Part shown: positions 594 through 20,046 of the stretch, in pieces | Position numbering within the stretch: the first letter of the stretch is position 1 | Layout: every line of letters begins with the position of its first letter | Origin: an uncultured Halobacteria archaeon | Lineage (GTDB): Archaea > Halobacteriota > Syntropharchaeia > JACQPP01 | Assembly: GCA_964486625.1 (NCBI GenBank) | Contig: CAZANW010000016.1 | Span: 8,398 to 32,397, forward strand | Length of the DNA: 24,000 bases | Direction of reading: 5' to 3' | The notes under the pieces: model-generated | Database searches by the model: none | Told to the model about the DNA's origin: nothing | Seen by the model: only the letters and a program-made list of their open reading frames with translations | Made by a program: the position numbers and the translations under genes

Positions 594-2477
594 TCAGAAG
601 TCCCAGTTCGCCGGCTGCCCGTAGTTCTTGGTCCACCAAAGCGGGAACCCGAGCCTGACCCACCGCAGCGCCTCCTTGTATCCGGAGTCCACCGGCGTCC
701 CCGAAATCACCGGGTAGAAAACGAGGAACAGGACCGCCGCCGCCGTGATGAGCGCCGCGGCGAGCCAGAGCCCCCGCTTCGGGTCCTTTTCCCACGCCCG
801 CTCCACACCCCACGCGCACCCGAGGGCGAGCAGGGCGACGTTCGGGAAGTAGTGGTAGATGAAGAGGACTCGCGGGATGGGCGCGAGGGCGGCCCACTGG
901 ACGAGCCAGGCGACGCCGATGAAGAGCGCCGCCCGTTCCCTGCGCGCCCGGGAGAGGGCGAGGACCACGAACGCCAGCCCCGCCCACCACACCACCGGGT
1001 TCCCCATCGAGACGATGGTCGAGACCTTGTCGCCGAAGGTCTCGCCATACATCCAGAGCGGGTGGAGGATAAGGGGCCACGACCACCACGGGGAGCCGTA
1101 GGGGTGGGGGGCTTCCAGGGTGGAGTGGTATCCCCAGATGGAGCGCGGCCCGCAGCACTGCTCCGAGAGGACGTCGCCGAGCCCGAGGCCCGAGGCGTAG
1201 TAGGGGGCGTAGGTCGCCAGGTAAATCGCCCCGGCCGCAGCGAGGCCGGCGAGGAACGGGCGGACCGAGGCGCGGAAGAGGTCGCGCTCGCGCCGCACCC
1301 GCACGAGGGCCAGGAGGAGGAGAGCCGCCAGCGAGTTCACGGCGACGACCTTGACGGAGAGGGCGAGGCCGAAAAAGAGCAGCGCAAGGAACAATGGATT
1401 TTTGAGGATTCCGACAGCTCGCGCGCGCTCGGCGGCACACGCATCCGCAGGAGGCGTGTGTTTGCGACAAAGTCGCAAGGCCCCGGCCTCGCTCGCTCGG
1501 GCCAGCGCCGCTCCTCGCGCCTCGCTTCGCTCGGCGCTCGTCGCAATCATGGCGCTGGGGGCCGCCTCGCTTGTGCGCTCGCTGCCCTTCAATGAGTTGC
1601 CTCTTCCGGGGAGAATCTCTGAGGGCGTCATCCACCACTTGGCGAAGAAGGCCCACATCCCCGTCAGGAACAGGAACAGGAAAATCTCTCCCGTCGAAAT
1701 CCGCGCCTGGGTGAAGTGCATGAAGTCGAACGTGACGAGCGCCGCGGCCACGATGCCCGCGCGCCGGTTCCCGAGCAGGTTGCGCCCCAGCAGGAACGCC
1801 GCCGGGATGGCCGCCGCGCCCGCCAGGACCCCGAGGAGCCGCCAGCCGAAGGGGCCGTTCCCCGCCACGAGAATCGAGAGGGCAATCAGGTCCTTCCCGA
1901 GAGGCGGGTGGGTCCACTCGAAGAAGGGCGGGGCCCGCCGGAGATACTCGTCGGCGGTCCGCATGAAGTAAATCTCGTCGAAGTAGGCGCCCGCGAAGTA
2001 GGTGGGGGCGCCGGAGACGAGGGCCGCCTCGTCCGCGAGTTTTTCGGCGCCCGGCGGCCCGCTCACGCCGGAGACCCGCACCGCGTCGAGCCCCCGGACG
2101 GGGACCACCTCGGCGACCGTCGCCCGGGAGTCGCTGAAGTTGAGCCGGAGGTAGCGGGTGTCGCACTGGGTCGTGGAGGGGACCCACTGCTTGTAGTCGC
2201 CCTGCGCCGAAGCGGTGGACTTGTAGGACCATTCGCCCGGCTGGCCGCAGGACACCTCGGCCTTCAGCGGCTCGGGGTCCCACACCGCGAAGAAGACGCG
2301 GTCCACCCGCTGGACGCTCCCGAGGTCGAGGACCGCCTCTCCGTCCCCCCTCCAGCCGCTCGACGGGAAGGCGCCGGCCCCGAGGTTCCAGAGGCCGACG
2401 ATGAGAAAGAGGGCGGTGAGGCCCGAAACAATCGCCAGCGGCGCGCGCGGATGGACCAGCCACTTCTTTGGTTCCAT
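594..2477 (-). CDS. GT39 / PMT-family dolichyl-phosphate-mannose-protein mannosyltransferase-like GT-C membrane glycosyltransferase, carrying an in-frame repeat-element insertion
   Basis: 627-aa polytopic membrane protein. Loop-1 acidic motif YFDEIYFMRTADEYL (PMT DE motif) and C-terminal HPYGSPWWSWPL motif typical of the PMT/PMT_4TMC region. Starts 3 nt after the stop of the upstream gene (operon). Confidence 0.85.
   Translation of the reverse strand: MEPKKWLVHPRAPLAIVSGLTALFLIVGLWNLGAGAFPSSGWRGDGEAVLDLGSVQRVDRVFFAVWDPEPLKAEVSCGQPGEWSYKSTASAQGDYKQWVPSTTQCDTRYLRLNFSDSRATVAEVVPVRGLDAVRVSGVSGPPGAEKLADEAALVSGAPTYFAGAYFDEIYFMRTADEYLRRAPPFFEWTHPPLGKDLIALSILVAGNGPFGWRLLGVLAGAAAIPAAFLLGRNLLGNRRAGIVAAALVTFDFMHFTQARISTGEIFLFLFLTGMWAFFAKWWMTPSEILPGRGNSLKGSERTSEAAPSAMIATSAERSEARGAALARASEAGALRLCRKHTPPADACAAERARAVGILKNPLFLALLFFGLALSVKVVAVNSLAALLLLALVRVRRERDLFRASVRPFLAGLAAAGAIYLATYAPYYASGLGLGDVLSEQCCGPRSIWGYHSTLEAPHPYGSPWWSWPLILHPLWMYGETFGDKVSTIVSMGNPVVWWAGLAFVVLALSRARRERAALFIGVAWLVQWAALAPIPRVLFIYHYFPNVALLALGCAWGVERAWEKDPKRGLWLAAALITAAAVLFLVFYPVISGTPVDSGYKEALRWVRLGFPLWWTKNYGQPANWDF
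1404..1619. repeat. GC-rich palindromic (MITE/RPE-like) element, copy A, inside the GT39 ORF
   Basis: A 1406-1486 matches the reverse complement of 15341-15420 (about 90% by hand alignment). A 1501-1557 matches 15284-15339 in direct orientation (about 50 of 57). Ends are gaggattc ... gagaatctc. Outer boundaries are approximate. Confidence 0.7.
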
Positions 2478-5171: not shown

Positions 5172-5309
5172 TGAAAAATCCTAAGCACTAAATTCTAAAT
5201 CCTAAACAAATTCAAATGCTTAAAATCCAAAATTCAAAACGGAAGTTTTGGATTTTGTGCTTTGAATTTCGGATTTGTTTAGGATTTAGGATTTTGAACT
5301 TGGAATTTT
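5172..5309. repeat. AT-rich long imperfect palindrome (arms about 65 nt, loop ggaa at 5241-5244) built from aaatcctaa / ttaggattt units
   Basis: The left arm (5173-5240) is largely complementary to the right arm (5245-5309). GC is far below the surrounding sequence. It fills the gap between convergent genes and abuts the stop codon at 5308-5310. T-runs are present on both strands. Confidence 0.7.
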
Positions 5310-5978: not shown

Positions 5979-6695
5979 TTACAGGCCGAGGACTTCCTGC
6001 ATCGTGTGAATCCCGGGCCGGGCGCGGACCACCCACCGGGCGGCCCTCAGGGCCCCGGCGGCGAACGCGGCCCGGGAGTGGGCGCGGTGGGTCAGTTCCA
6101 GCCGCTCCCCGGGGCCCGCGAGGACGAGGGTGTGGTCCCCGACCACGTCGCCCGCGCGGAGCGAGTGGACGGTCGTTCCCCGCCCCCGCGCGGCCGCGAT
6201 GCGGGCCATCTCCTTCGCGGTCCCGCTGGGGGCGTCCCTCTTGGTCCGGTGGTGGGCCTCGACAATTTCGACGTCGTACTCCCGCAGGAGGTCGAGGGCG
6301 GCCTCTTCGAGTCTCCAGAGGACATTCACCCCGACGGAGAAGTTGCTCGACACCACGGCGGGGACCCGGCGGCCGACGGTGCGCCGCAGGGCCGCGGCCT
6401 GGGCCGGGGTGAAGCCGGTGGTCCCGACGACGAGGGCGGTCCCTGTCGCCGCCGCCATCCGGGCGCTCGCCAGGGCTCCCCCGGGAGCGGTGAAGTCAAT
6501 CAGGACCCCCGCCCGGCTGGCGCGGAGTGCGGCGTCCGACGGCTCCTCGACCCGGACCGGGCCCGCCGGGACCCCGGCGTCCCGGATGTCGAAGGCCGCT
6601 GCCAGAACCAAATCGCGCTGCTGGAGAATGGATTCGACGAGGGCCGACCCCATGCGGCCCCGGGCGCCGGCGACGGCGATGCGGAGGGCACTCAT
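5979..6695 (-). CDS. dapB: 4-hydroxy-tetrahydrodipicolinate reductase
   Basis: N-terminal Rossmann motif IAVAGARGRMG and the diagnostic EAHHRTKRDAPSGTA motif. ATGA overlap with dapA at 6692-6695. Confidence 0.95.
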   Translation of the reverse strand: MSALRIAVAGARGRMGSALVESILQQRDLVLAAAFDIRDAGVPAGPVRVEEPSDAALRASRAGVLIDFTAPGGALASARMAAATGTALVVGTTGFTPAQAAALRRTVGRRVPAVVSSNFSVGVNVLWRLEEAALDLLREYDVEIVEAHHRTKRDAPSGTAKEMARIAAARGRGTTVHSLRAGDVVGDHTLVLAGPGERLELTHRAHSRAAFAAGALRAARWVVRARPGIHTMQEVLGL

Positions 6696-11133: not shown

Positions 11134-12054
11134 TTACGTGAATACCTCGCAGCCGTCCTCCGTCACGATGACCGAGTGCTCGAACTGCGCGACCGGCGCC
11201 CCCGACACTTCCACCAGGACCGGATATTCGTAGAGGACCCCCGCGCCCTTCAGTTGCCGGAGCCCGAGTTCCACCTGCGGCGACTTCAGCCACCGCTTGG
11301 CCACGGGGAGCCCGCGGAACCTCCGCAGTTCCGCCTGGACCGCCCTCCCCTGGGGGAGCCGGACGGGCTTCTCCCCCGTGAGCATCACAATCTCCACCGC
11401 GGGGCCGTCTTTGACCCGTCCCGCGCCGGTGGTGGCGAAGGGCTCGATGGCGACGGTCTGCCCCGCCCGCAGCCGGGGGCCGCCCGGCGTCACCCGGTTG
11501 GGGATGGAGGGGGGCGCGTGCTGGGTGTAGCGCTCGAGGCCGTGGCCCGTGAGGTTCCCCACCGGCTTCACGCCGTCGAATTCGGAGATGGCCGCCTCGA
11601 TGGCCGCGCCAATCTCGGCGGTCGAGACCCCCGCGCGCATGGCGGCGATGGCGGCCTCCAGCCCCTTCCGGGCCGCCTCGACGATGGGGCCGTGCCTCCC
11701 CGACAGGTCCACAGTCACCGCCGTGTCGGCGATGAAGCCGTCCACCTGGGCGCCGACGTCGAGTTTCACCAGGTCCTCGCCGAAGACCAGCGGGTCCCCC
11801 GCCTTCGGGGTGTAGTGGGCCGCCTCGTGGTTCCGGGAGATGTTGCAGGGGAACGCGGGCTCGGCCCCCGCCTCCCGGATGCGGCCCTCGACGAACTCCG
11901 CAATCTCGACGAGCCGGACCCCCGGTTTGATTTTCGCGGCCGCCTCGTCCCGGATTTGGCGGAGAATCTTGCCCGCCCTGCGGTGCTTCTCCAGGCGCTC
12001 CTCCGGCGGGACCTCCTCCGGGGGACGCCGGAGCACTTCGAACTTAGTGACCAT
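11134..12054 (-). CDS. map: methionine aminopeptidase, type 2 (archaeal)
   Basis: FPCNISRNHEAAHYTP and other M24A metal-ligand motifs; about 306 aa from the internal Met (MVTKFEVL). The track N-terminal extension (MQNAKFKSQNLAFFILHFSFCI) is translation of the AT-rich palindrome. Confidence 0.9.
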   Translation of the reverse strand: MVTKFEVLRRPPEEVPPEERLEKHRRAGKILRQIRDEAAAKIKPGVRLVEIAEFVEGRIREAGAEPAFPCNISRNHEAAHYTPKAGDPLVFGEDLVKLDVGAQVDGFIADTAVTVDLSGRHGPIVEAARKGLEAAIAAMRAGVSTAEIGAAIEAAISEFDGVKPVGNLTGHGLERYTQHAPPSIPNRVTPGGPRLRAGQTVAIEPFATTGAGRVKDGPAVEIVMLTGEKPVRLPQGRAVQAELRRFRGLPVAKRWLKSPQVELGLRQLKGAGVLYEYPVLVEVSGAPVAQFEHSVIVTEDGCEVFT

Positions 12055-12060
12055 GTCCGG

Positions 12061-12130
12061 AATGCAAAATGAAAAATGCAAAATGAAAAATGCAAGATTT
12101 TGACTTTTGAACTTTGCATTTTGCACTTTG
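12061..12130. repeat. AT-rich imperfect palindrome of the tgcaaaat/attttgca family (with a 14-nt tandem unit aatgcaaaatgaaa)
   Basis: Lies between the pepQ-like stop (12145) and the map start (12054). The minus strand reads ...tgcatttttcattttgcatttttcattttgcatt. The 15-mer tgcatttttcatttt (complement of 12066-12080 and 12080-12094) recurs at 20009-20023. Confidence 0.7.
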
Positions 12131-12144
12131 GCTTGCCGGCGCCA

Positions 12145-13242
12145 TCATACTTGCCACCTCTTGTCGAACCGGGTCAGGTTCGCGCACCGCCCGCCCCGCT
12201 TCACCAGGGCCATGTCCTCCAGCCGCACCCCCCCCACCCGCGGGTCGTAGAGCCCCGGCTCGACAGTCACCACCTGGCCCGCCCGGAGGCGGGAGTCGTT
12301 GTCGGCGAGCCGCGGGGGCTCGTGAATCTCGAGCCCGACGCCGTGGCCCGTCGAGTGGATGTAGAGTTTCTCGACCCCTGCCTCCTTGAACACCTCCACC
12401 GCCGCCCGGTGGGGGGAGCGGCAGGGAGCCCCGGCGCGGACCTCGGCCAAAGCGGCCTTCTGGGCCCGGAGGACCAGGTCGTGCATTTCCCGCAGCCGCG
12501 GGGATGGACGACCGGGGATGAAGGTGCGGGTCATGTCGGCGAAGTAGCGGGTGGAGAGCGAGCGCGGGAAGAAGTCGCACACTACGGGGTCTCCGGGGCG
12601 GATGGAGCCGCTCCCGGCCCAGTGGGGGTCGGCGCTCCCGCGCCCCGGGGCGACAATCAGGTGGCCGGGCTCGCAGCCCCGCCGGAGGAGCAGGGTGTCC
12701 ACGGCGGTCCGGATTTTGTCGGCGGTGGTGCGCTTCCGCAGCATCCGCCGCGCCAGTGCCATCCCCTCCTCGGTGGCGCGTTGGACGCGCTTCATGGCCG
12801 CTACCTCGGCCGGGCTCTTGAGGGTCCGGTCCTGCCGGAGAGCATCGAGGGGCTCCAGGGCGAAACCGCGGCGGCGGAGGTCGAGGGCGAGGCCGAGGGG
12901 GAAGTTGGGCGGAACCCCAACCCGCCGGAGCCCCTTGCGGCGGAGGACCTTGGCGATGAATGCCGCCGTCGCGTCTTCGGGATTCCTGCGGGCGAGCGAT
13001 GCCCAGTCGAAGTCGTCCATGCACCGGACCTCGGAGACCCGCGCCTCCTTCCGGGCGCGGCCGAACTCGAGCCGGGAGACGACGACCGAGGAGCGCCCCC
13101 GCTTCCAGAGGTAGAGGAACGGGTCGGGTGCGAGGAACCCCGTGGCGTAGTGCATGCCGGCGTCGGCCTCGCTGGCGGAGTAGATGAGATAGCCGCCGAG
13201 GCGGCGGGAGCGGAGCTCGCGGGCGAGGGCGGGAAACATCAC
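12145..13242 (-). CDS. pepQ: Xaa-Pro dipeptidase / M24B family metallopeptidase
   Basis: HSTGHGVGLEIHEPP and VTVEPGLY motifs of M24B prolidases/aminopeptidase P, with an N-terminal creatinase-like domain. 365 aa. Confidence 0.9.
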   Translation of the reverse strand: MMFPALARELRSRRLGGYLIYSASEADAGMHYATGFLAPDPFLYLWKRGRSSVVVSRLEFGRARKEARVSEVRCMDDFDWASLARRNPEDATAAFIAKVLRRKGLRRVGVPPNFPLGLALDLRRRGFALEPLDALRQDRTLKSPAEVAAMKRVQRATEEGMALARRMLRKRTTADKIRTAVDTLLLRRGCEPGHLIVAPGRGSADPHWAGSGSIRPGDPVVCDFFPRSLSTRYFADMTRTFIPGRPSPRLREMHDLVLRAQKAALAEVRAGAPCRSPHRAAVEVFKEAGVEKLYIHSTGHGVGLEIHEPPRLADNDSRLRAGQVVTVEPGLYDPRVGGVRLEDMALVKRGGRCANLTRFDKRWQV

Positions 13243-14063: not shown

Positions 14064-14885
14064 ATGGCCTACCCGTTCACCGACGAGCAGATTGTCCGCT
14101 ACTCCCGCCAGATGGTCATGCCCGAGGTCGGCGGCAAGGGGCAGGAGCGGCTCCTCAAGGGAAGGGTCCTCTGCGTCGGCGCCGGGGGCCTCGGGAGCCC
14201 CGTCATCCAGTTCCTCGCGGCCGCGGGGGTCGGGACCCTCGGCATCATGGACTACGACAAGGTGGACCTCTCGAACCTCCAGCGGCAGACGATTCACGCG
14301 GGCAACGTGGGCAAGTCGAAGGCCCGGTCGGCCGCCGAGTTCGTCGCCCGGCTGAACCCCGACGTGAAGACCGCGGTCTACGAGGAGGCCCTCTCGGCGG
14401 AGAACGCGCGGAAAATCTTCCGCAACTACGATTTCATCGTGGACGGCTCCGACAACTTCGCGACCCGCTACTTGGTGAACGACGCCGCCCTCCTGGAGCG
14501 CAAGCCCTTCTCCCACGGGGCAATCCTCCGGTTCGAGGGGCAGGTGACGAGCGTGGTCCCGGGCAGGGGGCCCTGCTACCGGTGCATCTTCCCCGAGGCC
14601 CCGCCCGCCGGGACCGTGCCCACCTGCCAGGAGGCGGGGGTCCTCGGGGCCATCCCCGGCATCGTGGCCTCCATCCAGGCGGGCGAGGCGATGCGCTTCC
14701 TGCTGGGGAAGGGCGACCTCCTCGTGGGCCGGCTGCTGCTGGTGGACGCCCTCCGGATGACGTTCACCGAGTTGAAAATCCGCCGGAACCCCGCCTGCCC
14801 CGCCTGCGGCGACGCGCCGCTCCTGAGGGAGCTGAAGGCGGAGAACTACCAGAACACCTGCTCCCTGGCGGCCTCGCACGGATGA
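14064..14885 (+). CDS. moeB: E1-like adenylyltransferase of the MoeB/ThiF/UbaA family
   Basis: RYSRQ...G..GQ..L....VL.VGAGGLGSP, D.D.V..SNLQRQ, and two Cys pairs (CYRC ... CPAC) of the zinc site. 273 aa. Confidence 0.9.
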   Translation: MAYPFTDEQIVRYSRQMVMPEVGGKGQERLLKGRVLCVGAGGLGSPVIQFLAAAGVGTLGIMDYDKVDLSNLQRQTIHAGNVGKSKARSAAEFVARLNPDVKTAVYEEALSAENARKIFRNYDFIVDGSDNFATRYLVNDAALLERKPFSHGAILRFEGQVTSVVPGRGPCYRCIFPEAPPAGTVPTCQEAGVLGAIPGIVASIQAGEAMRFLLGKGDLLVGRLLLVDALRMTFTELKIRRNPACPACGDAPLLRELKAENYQNTCSLAASHG

Positions 14886-15178
14886 GGCTCGGCATCCTCC
14901 TCACCCGCTCGCCCATGGACGAAGGGGCCAGGACAGCCCGGGTGCTGGCCGCGGAGGCCGCTGCGAAGGGGCACACGGTCGAGATTTTCCTGATGGAGGA
15001 GGGGCTCTACAACCTCCTCGACCCGAAGTTCCTGGAACTGCGCGGAAAGGTCTCCATCCAGGCGTGCAGCGTGAACCGGGAGGCCCTGGGCATCCCGAAG
15101 GTCGAAGGCGTGAGATTCTCCAGCCAGTATGACCACGCCCTCTTGGTGAACGGCTGCGACCACTTCCTCCACTTCTGA
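14882..15178 (+). CDS. dsrE: DsrE/TusD-like sulfur-relay protein (short form, 98 aa)
   Basis: The ATG overlaps the moeB stop (ATGA at 14882-14885). Matches TusD landmarks: FLMEEGLYN, the active-site-like Cys context IQACSVNREALGI, and the C-terminal CDHFLHF. Confidence 0.75.
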   Translation: MRLGILLTRSPMDEGARTARVLAAEAAAKGHTVEIFLMEEGLYNLLDPKFLELRGKVSIQACSVNREALGIPKVEGVRFSSQYDHALLVNGCDHFLHF

Positions 15179-15219
15179 CCATGGCGAGAAATAATTTATC
15201 GAAACATCTCGGAAAGGTA

Positions 15220-15428
15220 GTTCGAGGATTCTCGACGGGCCGCGCGCTCGGCGCCGGTGCTCGGGCTCGCTTCGCTCGCCCTCGCCAGCGCCGCTCCTCG
15301 CGCGTAGCTTCGCTCCGCGCTCGTCGCATATTGGCGCTGACCGGCGCCTTGCGGCTTCGCCGCAAACACACACCTCCTGCGGATGCGTGTGCCGCCGAGC
15401 GTGCGCGAGCTGTCGAATCCCCCGAACG
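15220..15428. repeat. GC-rich palindromic (MITE/RPE-like) element, copy B, in the dsrE-dsrF spacer
   Basis: Terminal inverted repeats gttcgaggattctcgac ... gtcgaatcccccgaac. Internal blocks match copy A (see 1404..1619). Track ORFs 15181..15480(+) and part of 15196..15834(-) are translations of this element. Confidence 0.75.
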
Positions 15429-15483
15429 GCGATTGGCTGGCCGGAGGAATATCGAACAACGGTTGCAGAAAGGGCGTTAGTTC

Positions 15484-15843
15484 ATGAAACCCAAGACCAG
15501 GACACGGAACGTCGTCTTCTTGGTCCGGCAGCCGCCCGTCGCCTCCGGCTGGACCTCCGAGGCCCTGCGGGTCGCCGTGGGGATGACCCTCGCCGACGGC
15601 AACCGCGTTACGGTGGTCCTCCTCGGGGACGGGGTCCTCGCCCTCGCTTCCCCGAAGCCCGAGGCCGTCGAATCCCTTGGACTCCGGGAGCACGTCGAGA
15701 CCCTCCGGGAACTCGGCGTCCGGCTGGTGGCGGAGAGGGAGGCGTGCGCGCGGCACGGGGTCGTCGCGCCGGGGGCGGAGACCGCCGACCGGGATGCAAT
15801 CGCGTTCCTGCTTGCTGACGCGGAGGTGCTCCAATCGTGGTGA
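15484..15843 (+). CDS. dsrF: DsrF/TusC-like sulfur-relay protein
   Basis: VVLLGDGVLAL, the EREACARHGV (C...RG) context and C-terminal AEVLQSW parallel TusC landmarks. Confidence 0.7.
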   Translation: MKPKTRTRNVVFLVRQPPVASGWTSEALRVAVGMTLADGNRVTVVLLGDGVLALASPKPEAVESLGLREHVETLRELGVRLVAEREACARHGVVAPGAETADRDAIAFLLADAEVLQSW

Positions 15844-17188: not shown

Positions 17189-18088
17189 ATGAAGGTGCTA
17201 GTCCTGTCCGGCGGCACCGGGACCCCGAAACTCCTGCTGGGCCTCCGGCGGCTCGTCCCGGAGCGCGACATCACGGTCGTCGCCAACACCGGCGAGGACC
17301 TCTGGATTTCCGGAAACCTGGTCTGCCCCGACATCGACTCCGTGCTCTACACGCTCTCGGGGCGCATCGACCCCCGGCGGATGTGGGGCGTGCGGGGCGA
17401 CACCTTCGCCACCCACCGCCAACTGGCGGAACTGGGCTGGCGCGAGCCCCTCGCCCTGGGGGACCTCGACCGGGCGGCCCACATCGCCCGGAGCGAGATG
17501 GTGCGCGCGGGGCGGACCCTGACGGAGGCCACGGCGGCCCTGGCGCGGAGGATGGGCGTGCGGGCGACGGTCCTCCCTGCCAGCGACGGCCCGGTGGCGA
17601 CGCTCATCCGGACGCCGGAGGGCGAGATGCATTTCCAGGAGTTCTGGGTGGTCCGGCGCGGGCGGCCGCGGGTCCTCGGGGTGCGCTACGCGCTGGGCCG
17701 CGGTTCGGGCCCGGCCCCGGAGGTCCTGCGGGCCCTCCGCTCCCACGACGCCCTGCTCATCGGCCCGAGCAACCCGGCGACCTCCGTCGGCCCCATCCTC
17801 GCGGTCCTCGGGCGCCACGTGCGCGGCAAGCGGGTGGTCGCGGTCTCGCCCATCGTCGGCCGCCGGGCCTTCTCGGGGCCCGCGGGGAAACTCCTCCGGG
17901 GAGTCGGCTACCCGGTCTCCCCGCGAGGCGTCCTCGAGTTCTACTCCGACCGCCTCGGGTCGCCGCCGGAGCTCCTCGTGGAGCCGCGGGACGCGGATCC
18001 AGCCGCGGGACTCCACCCCGCACCCCTGCACATGAAGCGCCCGGGCGACGCGGCCCGGCTGGCACGGCGGGTCTTGGCGTTCCTGTGA
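17189..18088 (+). CDS. cofD: 2-phospho-L-lactate transferase (F420 biosynthesis)
   Basis: LSGGTGTPKLL.GL, VVANTGEDLWISGNLVCPDIDSVLYTLSG and GPSNP motifs of CofD. Starts 10 nt after asd. Confidence 0.9.
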   Translation: MKVLVLSGGTGTPKLLLGLRRLVPERDITVVANTGEDLWISGNLVCPDIDSVLYTLSGRIDPRRMWGVRGDTFATHRQLAELGWREPLALGDLDRAAHIARSEMVRAGRTLTEATAALARRMGVRATVLPASDGPVATLIRTPEGEMHFQEFWVVRRGRPRVLGVRYALGRGSGPAPEVLRALRSHDALLIGPSNPATSVGPILAVLGRHVRGKRVVAVSPIVGRRAFSGPAGKLLRGVGYPVSPRGVLEFYSDRLGSPPELLVEPRDADPAAGLHPAPLHMKRPGDAARLARRVLAFL

Positions 18089-18850
18089 GCCTCCCCGGGC
18101 AACCGGCCCGGGGGAACCGGGCGGGCGTGGCCCCGCCAGACCAGCGTCCCTTGTCAGACCCCCGATGGGTCCAAGGGTCCGGACTTACCGGGACGACCGC
18201 TCGGGAGGGGCGGGCCCGGAACCCGCGCCTCACTCCTTCTATGTCCCCGCCGCCGATAGGGCTTCCGGACGGAAAAGACGTAGGCGACCGTAGTCGTTGC
18301 CGACGATACAGGAGGGCGTTCGAAGGGTCCGCGAAAAGGGATATGGCCGGGCCGGAACTCCAGCGTTCATCGCTTGCTTTGCGATCGGCGCGTCCGTAGG
18401 AAGCGCCGAGGCGCAACGAAGCTGCGCCGCTCCGGCCGGTAACCCTCGGCCCGGCTCTGCATCCCCGCGGGGCATACACGGGAATCATCGCAGGAATGTC
18501 CGGCTGCTCCCGGGTACCGTTGCGGGGACTGTGGCCCTCCCGTTGCCCCGGCCGTCACGGAAGGCTTCGCCATCTTGGGCCGGTCCTCGTGGAGGGCTCC
18601 CCAAATTGAGTCGGGCCAAGGCAAAAACCCCTCGTTGCCGACGAAACGAGAGGGTTTCCGAGAGGACCGGCGCGGGCCTCAACCTTTGACTGCCACGCGT
18701 GCCGAAGGCACGCGGGATCGAGGCCCGCGACGACGAGACGAGAGAGTTCCGAGTGGACCGGCAACAAAGGCCGGTCCTCGTGGAGGGCCCAATCCCCATG
18801 CACCCCCCTGGATAAAAACCCGCAGGGCAAACGCGAGTCATCGCGACATC
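18089..18850. ncRNA. ORF-free, highly structured, internally repetitive region: candidate unclassified structured RNA(s); strand undetermined
   Basis: No believable ORF in any frame. Strong helices: 18092-18099/18105-18112, 18627-18653, 18670-18679/18719-18728 enclosing 18695-18702/18706-18713, and 18754-18761/18770-18777. Direct repeats: an exact 20-mer at 18577-18596 and 18768-18787, and a roughly 32-nt near-repeat at 18639-18670 and 18731-18761. Confidence 0.35.
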
Positions 18851-18851
18851 C

Positions 18852-18859
18852 TTTATATT
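18852..18859 (+). promoter_or_regulatory. TATA box (tttatatt) for the GTPase gene
   Basis: Centred about 30 nt upstream of the ATG at 18886. Confidence 0.55.
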
Positions 18860-18885
18860 CCCCCCTCCTACGGCTCCCCCAAGAA

Positions 18886-19944
18886 ATGAGCAACGTCAAC
18901 ATCGCCGTGGTCGGCGCCTTCCGCTCCGGCAAGTCGGCCCTGGTCGAGAAGCTCCAGCAGCGGAAGGGCATGGCCTCCGATATCGCCCTCTACTCCTACA
19001 AGAGCGGGACCGTCAACGTCACCCTCGTCGACGTCCCCGGGGACGCGGACAAGATGGGGCCCCTGATGAACGCGCTCCACATGGCGGACGCGGTCCTGCT
19101 CTGCGTCTCGGCCGAGCGCGGCATCGAGGTCCAGACCGGCGAGGCGCTCATCGCGGCAGCCGCCGCCGGGGTGAGCCGCGCGGCCGTCGCCATCACCAAG
19201 TCCGACTCCTCCACCTTCGACGACCTGGAGAAACTGAAGGCCCGGACCGCGGCGCTCCTCAAAGGCGGCCCCTTCGCCGGCGCGCCGGTCTTCGAGACCT
19301 CCACGGTCGCCGGCGTCGGAATCGCCGACGTGGCGGCCCACCTCGTCTCCCTCGACATCCCGAGGTCGAAGGAGGGGACGTTCAAGATGGGGGCCGACCA
19401 CTCCATCGAGCCCAAGGCGGGCTTCACGGTGGTCACCGGGACTGTGAGGCGCGGCGCTCTCCACCCGCGGGACGTGGTGACGCTCCTCCCGTGGGAGAAG
19501 GAGCTCGTGGTCCAGTCCATCCAGGTCCACAACGAGGACATGCCGGAGGTCATCGCGGGGGACCGCATCGCCATCGGCTTCAAGGGAATCCACTACCACG
19601 ACATCTCCCGGGGCGACACGGTGTGCGGCGCCGACAGCCCGGTCCGGAAGGCGAAGGCGTTCAAGGTCGCGATGAAAGTGGACCCGTTCTACAAGGAGCC
19701 CGTCTCGGTTGAGCAGCGTCTCCACCTCGCGGCGGGGCTCCAGTTCCACCCCGTCGCGGTGAAGAAAATCCTGAAGAACGGGGCCGAGGCCCCCGAGGCC
19801 AAGGCCGGGGAGGCGTGCGTCCTCGAAGTCGAGGTGGAGCGGGTCTCGATGGCGCTGGAGCCGGGGGAGTCGTGCATCGTGACGAGGCCGGAGTTGCCGG
19901 GGAGGATGAGCCGCATCTGCGGGGCGGGGAAGGTGGAGTTTTAA
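18886..19944 (+). CDS. EF-Tu/SelB-like translational-type GTPase paralogue (G domain plus beta-barrel domain 2), 352 aa
   Basis: G1 GAFRSGKS, G3 DVPG and G4 TKSD motifs, followed by a domain-2-like segment (GTVRRGALHPRDVVTLLP). It lacks the canonical GHVDHGKT and RGITI motifs of bona fide elongation factors. Confidence 0.75.
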   Translation: MSNVNIAVVGAFRSGKSALVEKLQQRKGMASDIALYSYKSGTVNVTLVDVPGDADKMGPLMNALHMADAVLLCVSAERGIEVQTGEALIAAAAAGVSRAAVAITKSDSSTFDDLEKLKARTAALLKGGPFAGAPVFETSTVAGVGIADVAAHLVSLDIPRSKEGTFKMGADHSIEPKAGFTVVTGTVRRGALHPRDVVTLLPWEKELVVQSIQVHNEDMPEVIAGDRIAIGFKGIHYHDISRGDTVCGADSPVRKAKAFKVAMKVDPFYKEPVSVEQRLHLAAGLQFHPVAVKKILKNGAEAPEAKAGEACVLEVEVERVSMALEPGESCIVTRPELPGRMSRICGAGKVEF

Positions 19945-19967
19945 AGCGCTCCGACTTGGTACCGGAA

Positions 19968-20046
19968 CAATGCAAATTGAAAATTGCAAAGTGCAACGTG
20001 CAAAATTTTGCATTTTTCATTTTTCAATCTGCGATTTTCAATCGTA
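19968..20046. repeat. AT-rich imperfect palindrome of the tgcaaaat/attttgca family
   Basis: caatgcaaattgaaaattgcaaagtgcaacgtgcaaaa|ttttgcatttttcatttttcaatctgcgattttcaatcg fills the gap between the GTPase stop (19944) and the next ATG (20050). Shares the 15-mer tgcatttttcatttt with the 12.1-kb element. Confidence 0.7.

Follow-up and report, generated by a model that had tools for sequence, protein, structure and literature searches.

The DNA analyzed here, hereafter called the window, is a stretch of 24,000 nucleotides of contig CAZANW010000016.1, obtained from an uncultured, thermophilic hot spring archaeon, with a GC content of 69.6%. The minus-strand open reading frame (ORF) at 594-2477 encodes a PMT/GT39-type glycosyltransferase, hereafter called GT39, and runs without a break from end to end. 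Within the codons of one short loop it carries a palindromic sequence, copy A, that is absent from its close orthologues. A longer, related sequence, copy B, separates two genes of the DsrE family in the same window (Table 1). A first-pass annotation of the window had read copy A as a palindromic element lying in frame within a PMT/GT39-type ORF; the continuity of the ORF and the orthologues without the segment both support that description.

The GT39 product was tested for PMT and PMT_4TMC domains, for the Asp-Glu motif and for a GT-C fold, and all were present. Pfam placed PMT/PMT_2 at residues 190-282 and PMT_4TMC at residues 446-607, with the insert between them, in agreement with the earlier placement of the insert between two transmembrane segments with PMT sequence on either side. 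The loop-1 Asp-Glu motif (D167 and E168) was invariant in the alignment of GT39 homologues. When the AlphaFold2 model was compared with known structures using Foldseek, the best PDB matches were Pmt4 and Pmt1-Pmt2, that is, the GT-C fold of the solved PMT structures, and a profile search with the sequence also matched PMT structures. Separately, residues 46-139 matched CBM32 carbohydrate-binding modules in Foldseek (TM-score normalized by target length of about 0.5). This extracellular, CBM32-like beta-sandwich lies between the first transmembrane helix and the Asp-Glu loop.

A protein search returned the query (P0001) together with three close orthologues of about 80% identity (P0002, P0003 and P0004). 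P0002 came from metagenome-assembled genomes (MAGs) labelled 'Halobacteria archaeon', and the remoter matches were labelled Euryarchaeota, Methanocellales and Bathyarchaeota. The three close sequences were taken as orthologues and not paralogues because the gene order around them is kept (DHDPS, DapB, three small genes, a second GT-C gene, then GT39). In all three the long segment is absent from the loop, which reads P-R-E-(K/R)-L-x-x-K-x-x-x-(I/V)-W-K-(H/D)-P-L-F, and it is absent as well from 79 remoter homologues. In the resulting 83-sequence alignment the spacing between F277 and L362 is 84 residues in the window protein, versus a median of 19 and a range of 14-31. The insertion site is the most length-variable loop of the family among these homologues, a short, variable, K/R-rich stretch between two transmembrane helices, and in a profile alignment the native loop falls opposite the K/R-rich loop KFYKLRHEPFSRKWW of C. 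thermophilum Pmt4. Judged by the positive-inside rule and by the number of helices after the extracellular Asp-Glu loop, the insert-bearing loop is probably cytoplasmic, on the face opposite the catalytic side. Alignment with orthologous GT39 proteins had been proposed as a check on whether the segment might be a conserved native loop, and it shows no such conservation; a native loop specific to this lineage was likewise rejected on the alignments of orthologues and homologues. One orthologue, P0004 (locus L019, ERR14373513), has a 16-residue insertion of its own (SRHVAEQGAGGMRSSPG) in another short turn, at alignment columns 317-332, for which BLAST found no similarity to either copy.

The window protein is 61 residues longer than P0002, which corresponds to a net gain of 183 nt and replaces the earlier estimate of 216 bp and 72 residues; the expectation that the length would be a multiple of three holds for this net value. 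The added residues are rich in Ala, Arg, Ser and Glu. Across the segment (codons 287-358) the GC content at the three codon positions is flat (0.69/0.68/0.71), versus 0.65/0.51/0.93 upstream and 0.65/0.50/0.92 downstream in the same gene; the segment has no history as coding sequence in this genome. Codons with a final A or T are concentrated in the same part of the gene, with 29 out of 83 in codons 286-368 and 33 out of 545 elsewhere, and this cluster bounds the altered tract at about 1395-1622, or 76 codons in place of about 15 native ones. Some 13-15 native loop codons are replaced or unrecognizable. Homology to copy B could be demonstrated only for 1406-1570. Local alignments of 1580-1622 were non-significant with the left end of copy B (p = 0.19), with an element fragment at the related locus L001 (p = 0.24) and with native loops (p = 0.46-0.88), and codon composition cannot settle the origin of these nucleotides because the loop of the orthologue at locus L005 likewise uses A/T-ending codons. 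In the RNA fold, the segment at 1571-1622 pairs with the arm at 1404-1436. The part at 1586-1622 may have come from an element end that decayed or from a native loop that diverged, and copy A as a whole may be either a 183-nt element within a diverged native loop or an element of about 222 nt that replaced about 39 nt of native sequence, two readings that the data do not distinguish.

Table 1. Positions of copy A, copy B and their host and neighbouring genes in the 24,000-nt window.
Feature	Coordinates	Strand	Basis
Host gene, PMT/GT39-type GT-C glycosyltransferase, 627 aa	594..2477	-	ORF calling, Pfam, AlphaFold2/Foldseek
Maximal altered tract in GT39, codons 286-361	1395..1622	-	A/T-ending codons, orthologue alignments
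Copy A, arm and hairpin module: arm GAGGATTCCGACAGCTCGCGCGCGCTCGGCGG, then hairpins CACACGC..GCGTGTG and TTGCGAC-AAA-GTCGCAA	1404..1486	+	91% to reverse complement of 15341-15420
Copy A, core module	1486..1570	+	82-88% to 15269-15352, same strand
Copy A, degenerate second arm (~1571-1585) and segment of uncertain origin (1586-1622)	1571..1622	.	RNA fold; non-significant alignments
Insert-derived candidate peptides of GT39: AAPSAMIATSAER, HTPPADACAAER			
DsrE-like gene (98 aa) upstream of copy B, supplying the stop of the split TGAccATG junction	14882..15178	+	Pfam DsrE, synteny
Copy B, longer copy, 299 nt (303 nt net)	15184..15482	+	absent from four related loci; repeat homology
Copy B, outer left part	15184-15219	+	
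Copy B, left arm	15220-15258	+	
Copy B, core	15259-15340	+	
Copy B, two hairpins	15341-15392	+	
Copy B, right arm	15393-15427	+	
Copy B, outer right part	15428-15482	+	
dsrE-family gene, start now at second ATG	15484..15843	+	Pfam DsrE; orthologues P0122-P0127
Element end sequences GTTCGRGGATTC...CGCTCGGCG, motif pair proposed for matching against the ends of insertion sequences (IS)			

The two copies are similar far beyond what chance would produce in a 24-kb window. Nucleotides 1406-1486 match 15420-15341 on the opposite strand (91% over 81 nt, E = 2e-26), and nucleotides 1486-1570 match 15269-15352 on the same strand (82% over 85 nt, E = 9e-18). On the plus strand, copy A is the reverse complement of copy B except in three respects: with respect to the arm, the core has changed strand; the outer right part of copy B has no counterpart; and the second arm survives only in degenerate form. 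The core aligned in one orientation only, the opposite one scoring 15 versus 104. Copy A had been described as a straight copy of the element in the DsrE spacer; the homology stands at the identities given in Table 1, while the layout is a mosaic in which the arm is inverted and the core direct. A misjoin induced by repeats during assembly of the MAG, by which element sequence was placed into the gene, is very improbable on this evidence. Copy A differs from copy B by 9-18% and by the core inversion and is therefore not copy B threaded into GT39, the two flanks are parts of one gene, correctly ordered, oriented and in frame, and no matches were found of the kind that a misjoin requires, namely shared k-mers at both junctions. 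Such an artefact would fit the fact that the insert is known from a single assembly, in a protein cluster of one member, and that repeats do break assemblies, as at L005, where the contig ends 33 nt beyond an element-like match.

Copy B folds as one long arm stem that encloses several hairpins, with z-scores of -3.55 for the minus strand and -1.64 for the plus strand relative to shuffled sequences. A 9-bp inverted repeat without mismatch (GGCGCCGGT / ACCGGCGCC) borders its core on both sides. The inverted arms are imperfect and lie 35-53 nt inside the boundaries of the insertion, the extreme ends are not clearly inverted repeats, and similar hairpin-forming direct repeats were seen by eye near both ends (15196-15223 and 15451-15483). 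Between the copies, the hairpins differ by one compensatory replacement of A-U by G-C and one G-C pair that has become G-U. Pairing of the arms would bring the ends of the element together, as in an archaeal bulge-helix-bulge intron, and a few archaeal mRNAs are spliced by the tRNA splicing endonuclease. Removal of the element from the mRNA in this way, leaving a protein without the insert, nevertheless appears extremely improbable: relaxed motifs joining the boundaries numbered five for copy A and two for copy B, versus a background mean of 8.7 in random regions of the window, none was canonical, and Rfam contained no family matching either copy, whether at the gathering threshold or at E-values up to 10.

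Copy B occupies a junction that is otherwise tightly packed. In four related loci the genes for ThiF, a DsrE-like protein (98 aa) and DsrE (119-131 aa) follow one another with a TGAccATG stop/start or an overlap. Sites empty of copy B were found in L015/L016 (the same species as L001), L017 (GCA_964536735.1, DsrE 86% identical), L018 and L020; at these independent loci the neighbouring genes either overlap or are separated by 2 nt. The two DsrE-family genes of the window are 305 nt apart. The original TGAccATG is kept at 15176-15183 with the element directly after it, and the new dsrE ATG at 15484 lies exactly 303 nt past the original ATG at 15181, in the same frame, with a TAG stop at 15478-15480 between the two. 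The 'dsrE-dsrF spacer' of the first-pass annotation does hold the second copy, as proposed, but the empty sites at the related loci indicate that this spacer is not native, being an insertion of 303 nt. At each junction a CATG is present (15180-15183 and 15483-15486) that may be a 4-bp target duplication. The old dsrE ATG opens a 99-codon ORF through copy B, and its TAG ends 3 nt before the new start; by its position, this ORF could preserve termination-reinitiation coupling to dsrE. An AT-rich box (AAATAATTTAT) at 15190-15200 resembles an archaeal TATA box.

The state of the host gene was assessed on both sides of copy A. The 285 codons upstream and the 265 codons downstream contain zero frameshifts or stops, and the insert-bearing protein keeps every one of the 35 residues that do not vary among the 83 homologues. 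The ratio of nonsynonymous to synonymous substitution rates (dN/dS) against each of the three orthologues was 0.20-0.25 for residues 1-285 and 0.22-0.24 for residues 363-627, and 0.22 between two insert-free orthologues, all of these being pairwise averages over the whole divergence that are blind to a recent loss of constraint. An AlphaFold2 model built on the 83-sequence alignment kept the GT-C fold (mean predicted local distance difference test score, pLDDT, of 87; predicted template modelling score, pTM, of 0.87), structure prediction having been proposed as a check on whether the loop is tolerated. For insert residues 291-360 the mean pLDDT in successive 10-residue blocks was 56, 45, 55, 69, 58, 71 and 80, and helices were predicted at 315-333 and 344-358, while the adjoining transmembrane helices stayed confident. 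In the model the insert is compatible with the host fold, forming a separate excursion of lower confidence (pLDDT 45-80). Taken from sequence and model, these features suggest a gene without sign of decay, and the pseudogene that had been named as a possible refutation of the insertion is not upheld.

A gene that has already lost its function, with an ORF intact only because the event was recent and because stops are rare at 70% GC, could look similar. About 49% of all 225-nt frames in the window are free of stops, the insert lacks the codon bias of its host, which suggests a recent event, and pairwise dN/dS would miss a recent relaxation. We nevertheless regard loss of function as fairly unlikely given the undamaged codons on both flanks with all invariant residues, the position of the insertion in the most length-variable loop and on an apparently non-catalytic face, and the 9-18% divergence of the copies, by which the insertion is not brand new. 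The same frame statistics bear on how the ORF was kept. Three of the six frames are open across copy A and five of the six across copy B; insofar as about half of all frames are stop-free and the net length is divisible by three, an intact ORF is the likely result and is no sign of design.

The most probable explanation is that copy A is a non-autonomous palindromic element resembling a MITE (a transposable element of the miniature inverted-repeat type), tolerated in a loop of GT39. The genome would carry a family of non-coding, GC-rich, strongly self-complementary repeats of this type, whose longer form, about 300 bp in size, encloses two conserved hairpins and a core between long, imperfect inverted arms. 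Copy B landed on the TGAccATG stop/start junction of two DsrE-family genes, and copy A, shorter and partly degenerate, in the codons for the short K/R-rich loop, where GT39 remains one continuous protein because the net 183 nt are GC-rich and hold no stop in that frame. Movement would have depended on a transposase supplied in trans, and the core may have been flipped when the short inverted repeats on either side of it recombined or served for template switching. On this explanation the enzyme, judged from its sequence and predicted structure, presumably still works, and the insert would be a tolerated passenger rather than an adaptation. Features in support are the small size (299-303 nt for copy B and about 183-228 nt for copy A), the non-coding character, with six-frame peptides of both copies lacking homologues, the long inverted arms, the presence of relatives in related genomes, and a presence/absence pattern at orthologous sites in which copy A is missing from three orthologues and copy B from four orthologous loci.

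Copy A could also have arisen as a deletion-coupled templated patch, in which a break in the loop of GT39 was mended with sequence copied from part of an element situated elsewhere, template switching within the palindrome flipped the core, and about 39 nt of native sequence was lost. Several properties of copy A would follow: it is partial, lacking the outer right part of copy B and having a degenerate second arm; short inverted repeats flank its core, which is inverted with respect to the arm; and about 13-15 native codons are replaced with zero target duplication. Deletion-coupled insertions are moreover a recognized category in comparisons of archaeal genomes (PMC3119063). Even so, we judge this origin unlikely, since the native loop may merely have diverged (the orthologous loops are poorly conserved, and that of L005 uses A/T-ending codons) and copy B appears as a discrete insertion at a precise junction. 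Two copies are too few to tell transposition from a templated patch.

Relatives of the MITE-like element outside the window were found as end fragments in two related genomes. An outer end of copy B matches L001 at 14862-14903, just after thy1 (84% over 43 nt), and the right arm with the outer part matches L005 at 6388-6468, after a DUF7118 gene beside the GT39 orthologue (71% over 82 nt). The sequence inward of the arm in L005 is unlike both copies, and that contig ends shortly after the match, as would be expected if the element were repeated in that genome. Recurrence of the outer ends beside unrelated genes indicates that the outer parts belong to an element family extending beyond this organism. 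Larger collections were scanned with patterns drawn from the element; the scanned public DNA collections do not include the window's own genome. The outer-end pattern retrieved only the known L001 contig and eight chance bacterial matches from the genome collection and none from IMG/VR. The arm pattern gave more than 120 matches in metagenomes, all those listed being 22-32-nt chance matches in GC-rich DNA, and none in IMG/VR, and the core pattern gave zero in IMG/VR.

A number of observations weigh against a mobile, MITE-like family tolerated in a working gene. Only two copies are visible in the 24-kb window, besides the two end fragments. The exact hairpin pattern occurred zero times in species-representative genomes, JGI metagenome contigs and IMG/VR contigs, and BLAST of the element against phage and plasmid records returned nothing. 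Both copies were translated in six frames and concatenated as the query for a word-indexed search of 5.8 billion proteins; scoring of the 8000 candidates with most words in common with this low-complexity query retrieved only the query's own protein. The 76-residue insert peptide gave one match, of low identity and low complexity, among 1.84 billion cluster representatives, which at 50% identity may hide insert-bearing members. No transposase gene was found by Pfam domains among the genes of the window, and no clear target-site duplication was found, copy B having at most the CATG and copy A none. The junctions of copy A are unresolvable, with about 39 nt of native sequence seemingly replaced, a poor fit to simple cut-and-paste movement. 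Finally, the insert-bearing gene comes from one MAG assembly only (protein cluster of n = 1, and the protein not in the contig index), and the limit noted above for pairwise dN/dS belongs with these points.

The arm and hairpin module (1404-1486 and 15341-15427) shares its orientation and reading frame between the two host genes, being translated as ALRLCRKHTPPADACAAERARAVGI in copy A and ALRLRRKHTPPADACAAERARAVES in copy B, with LRL(C/R)RKHTPPADACAAERARAV in common. In copy B it is read from the old dsrE ATG and ends in a stop. Copy A is the only in-frame, ORF-preserving case; with n = 2 copies the chance of a shared orientation and frame is 1/6. By hand count, five of the six substitutions between the two modules fall at third codon positions (binomial p of about 0.02, or about 0.045 with the compensatory pair counted once), and two of these five are the compensatory hairpin pair. 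The GC content at third positions of the shared module is only about 0.57, which indicates that it is not long-standing coding sequence. The shared frame and the third-position bias point weakly toward an archaeal counterpart of the Rickettsia palindromic element (RPE), that is, a repeat shaped to survive within coding sequence. That the family is such a counterpart is improbable; if it were, with many copies inside ORFs in this frame across the genome, it would be the first such system in archaea.

The RPE had been offered as the known precedent, and the parallel extends to the outcome and not to family membership. Both are short palindromic repeats that lie in frame in unrelated housekeeping genes and add a peptide while the host ORF and fold stay intact. 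There is, however, no sequence relationship, and the host here is an archaeon and not Rickettsia; the insert peptide and the six-frame translations match no other credible protein, and the relatives are archaeal MAGs. Dozens of in-frame cases exist for the RPE, in contrast to one for the present element, which is longer, GC-rich and variable in internal layout, with its flipped core, and shows no sign of adaptation to translation. A similar outcome is seen for other intragenic bacterial elements, namely ERIC, BOX, QMITE1 and the Anabaena MITEs. Correia elements of Neisseria, BOX and ERIC also resemble it in being modular or mosaic, with variant internal segments and combinations of arms, and in lying occasionally within genes to give fusion peptides, although these are bacterial families of unrelated sequence. 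To our knowledge, none of these three shows a core inverted relative to one arm.

Archaeal MITEs are well known (PMC10969869, PMC3119063). Those of Sulfolobus, Halobacterium and Haloquadratum (PMC10969869, PMC3119063, PMC11602168) share with the present element a small size, non-coding sequence, long inverted repeats, strong structure, presence/absence at orthologous sites and a location mostly at gene junctions. The present element differs from them in having neither a clear target duplication nor a partner transposase that could be found, and the arms of copy B are subterminal, with 35-53 nt of non-palindromic sequence outside them. PATEs and other elements derived from IS200-IS605 in haloarchaea are alike in their near-terminal hairpins, in heterogeneous ends of 20-50 bp beyond the palindromes and in the lack of an evident target duplication. 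PATEs, unlike the present element, are without long inverted repeats (PMC3119063), and the window offers no TnpA/TnpB gene or target tetranucleotide for comparison. The earlier annotator knew of no archaeal equivalent of an in-frame insertion of this kind. No in-frame, ORF-preserving archaeal MITE was found in the literature searched, which is an absence of evidence within that scope only, so to that extent the statement stands. It is weakened by a 2024 census of 8220 archaeal genomes, in which 88.9% of MITEs were intergenic and about 11% lay elsewhere (PMC11602168), and by a 2024 review in which in-frame MITE fusions are 'not unusual' in bacteria (PMC10969869). The element is thus a new family with an outcome already known from bacteria, and a clean but incremental archaeal example.

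Other repeats are present in the window. A second, unrelated family of AT-rich palindromes occurs in this 70% GC sequence at 12047-12145, with a related copy at 19960-20045, and also at 5175-5309. At the first site, two M24 peptidase genes whose counterparts in L015, L018 and L020 overlap are separated by 12055-12138, a net insertion of 94 nt; the sequences on its two sides, GTGACCAT and GCGCCAT, look like a target duplication, now diverged, of some 8 bp of the orthologous GGTCACCAT. The related copy (81% over 54 nt) lies between an aSelB-like gene and a DUF1405 gene, and that at 5175-5309 is a 135-nt AT-rich hairpin. Invasion of tight junctions by AT-rich palindromes in the same window was counted in favour of a mobile origin for copies A and B. 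A further 800-nt tract at 18088-18886 has no convincing ORF and is absent after cofD in L015 and L020. Four copies of a motif whose two forms complement each other (GCCGGTCCTCGTGGA / TCCGAGWGGACCGGC) occur in it, along with a direct repeat of 38 nt (at 18294 and 18632) and a 20-nt repeat without mismatches (at 18578 and 18769), and a comparison with Rfam gave nothing at the gathering threshold.

Two palindromic element families split tight gene junctions in this window, and the genome looks heavily colonized. In-frame insertion of palindromic repeats within genes has been described mostly in Rickettsia and in a handful of other bacteria; here it is seen in an archaeon that is thermophilic and GC-rich, where a 61-residue addition to a conserved membrane enzyme leaves the ORF unbroken. 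With about half of frames stop-free in GC-rich genomes, such insertions should survive there more often than in AT-rich ones. For annotation, outlier loop lengths in MAG-derived proteins can represent element insertions rather than lineage-specific domains, and insertions of this kind could be an under-appreciated source of new protein loops.

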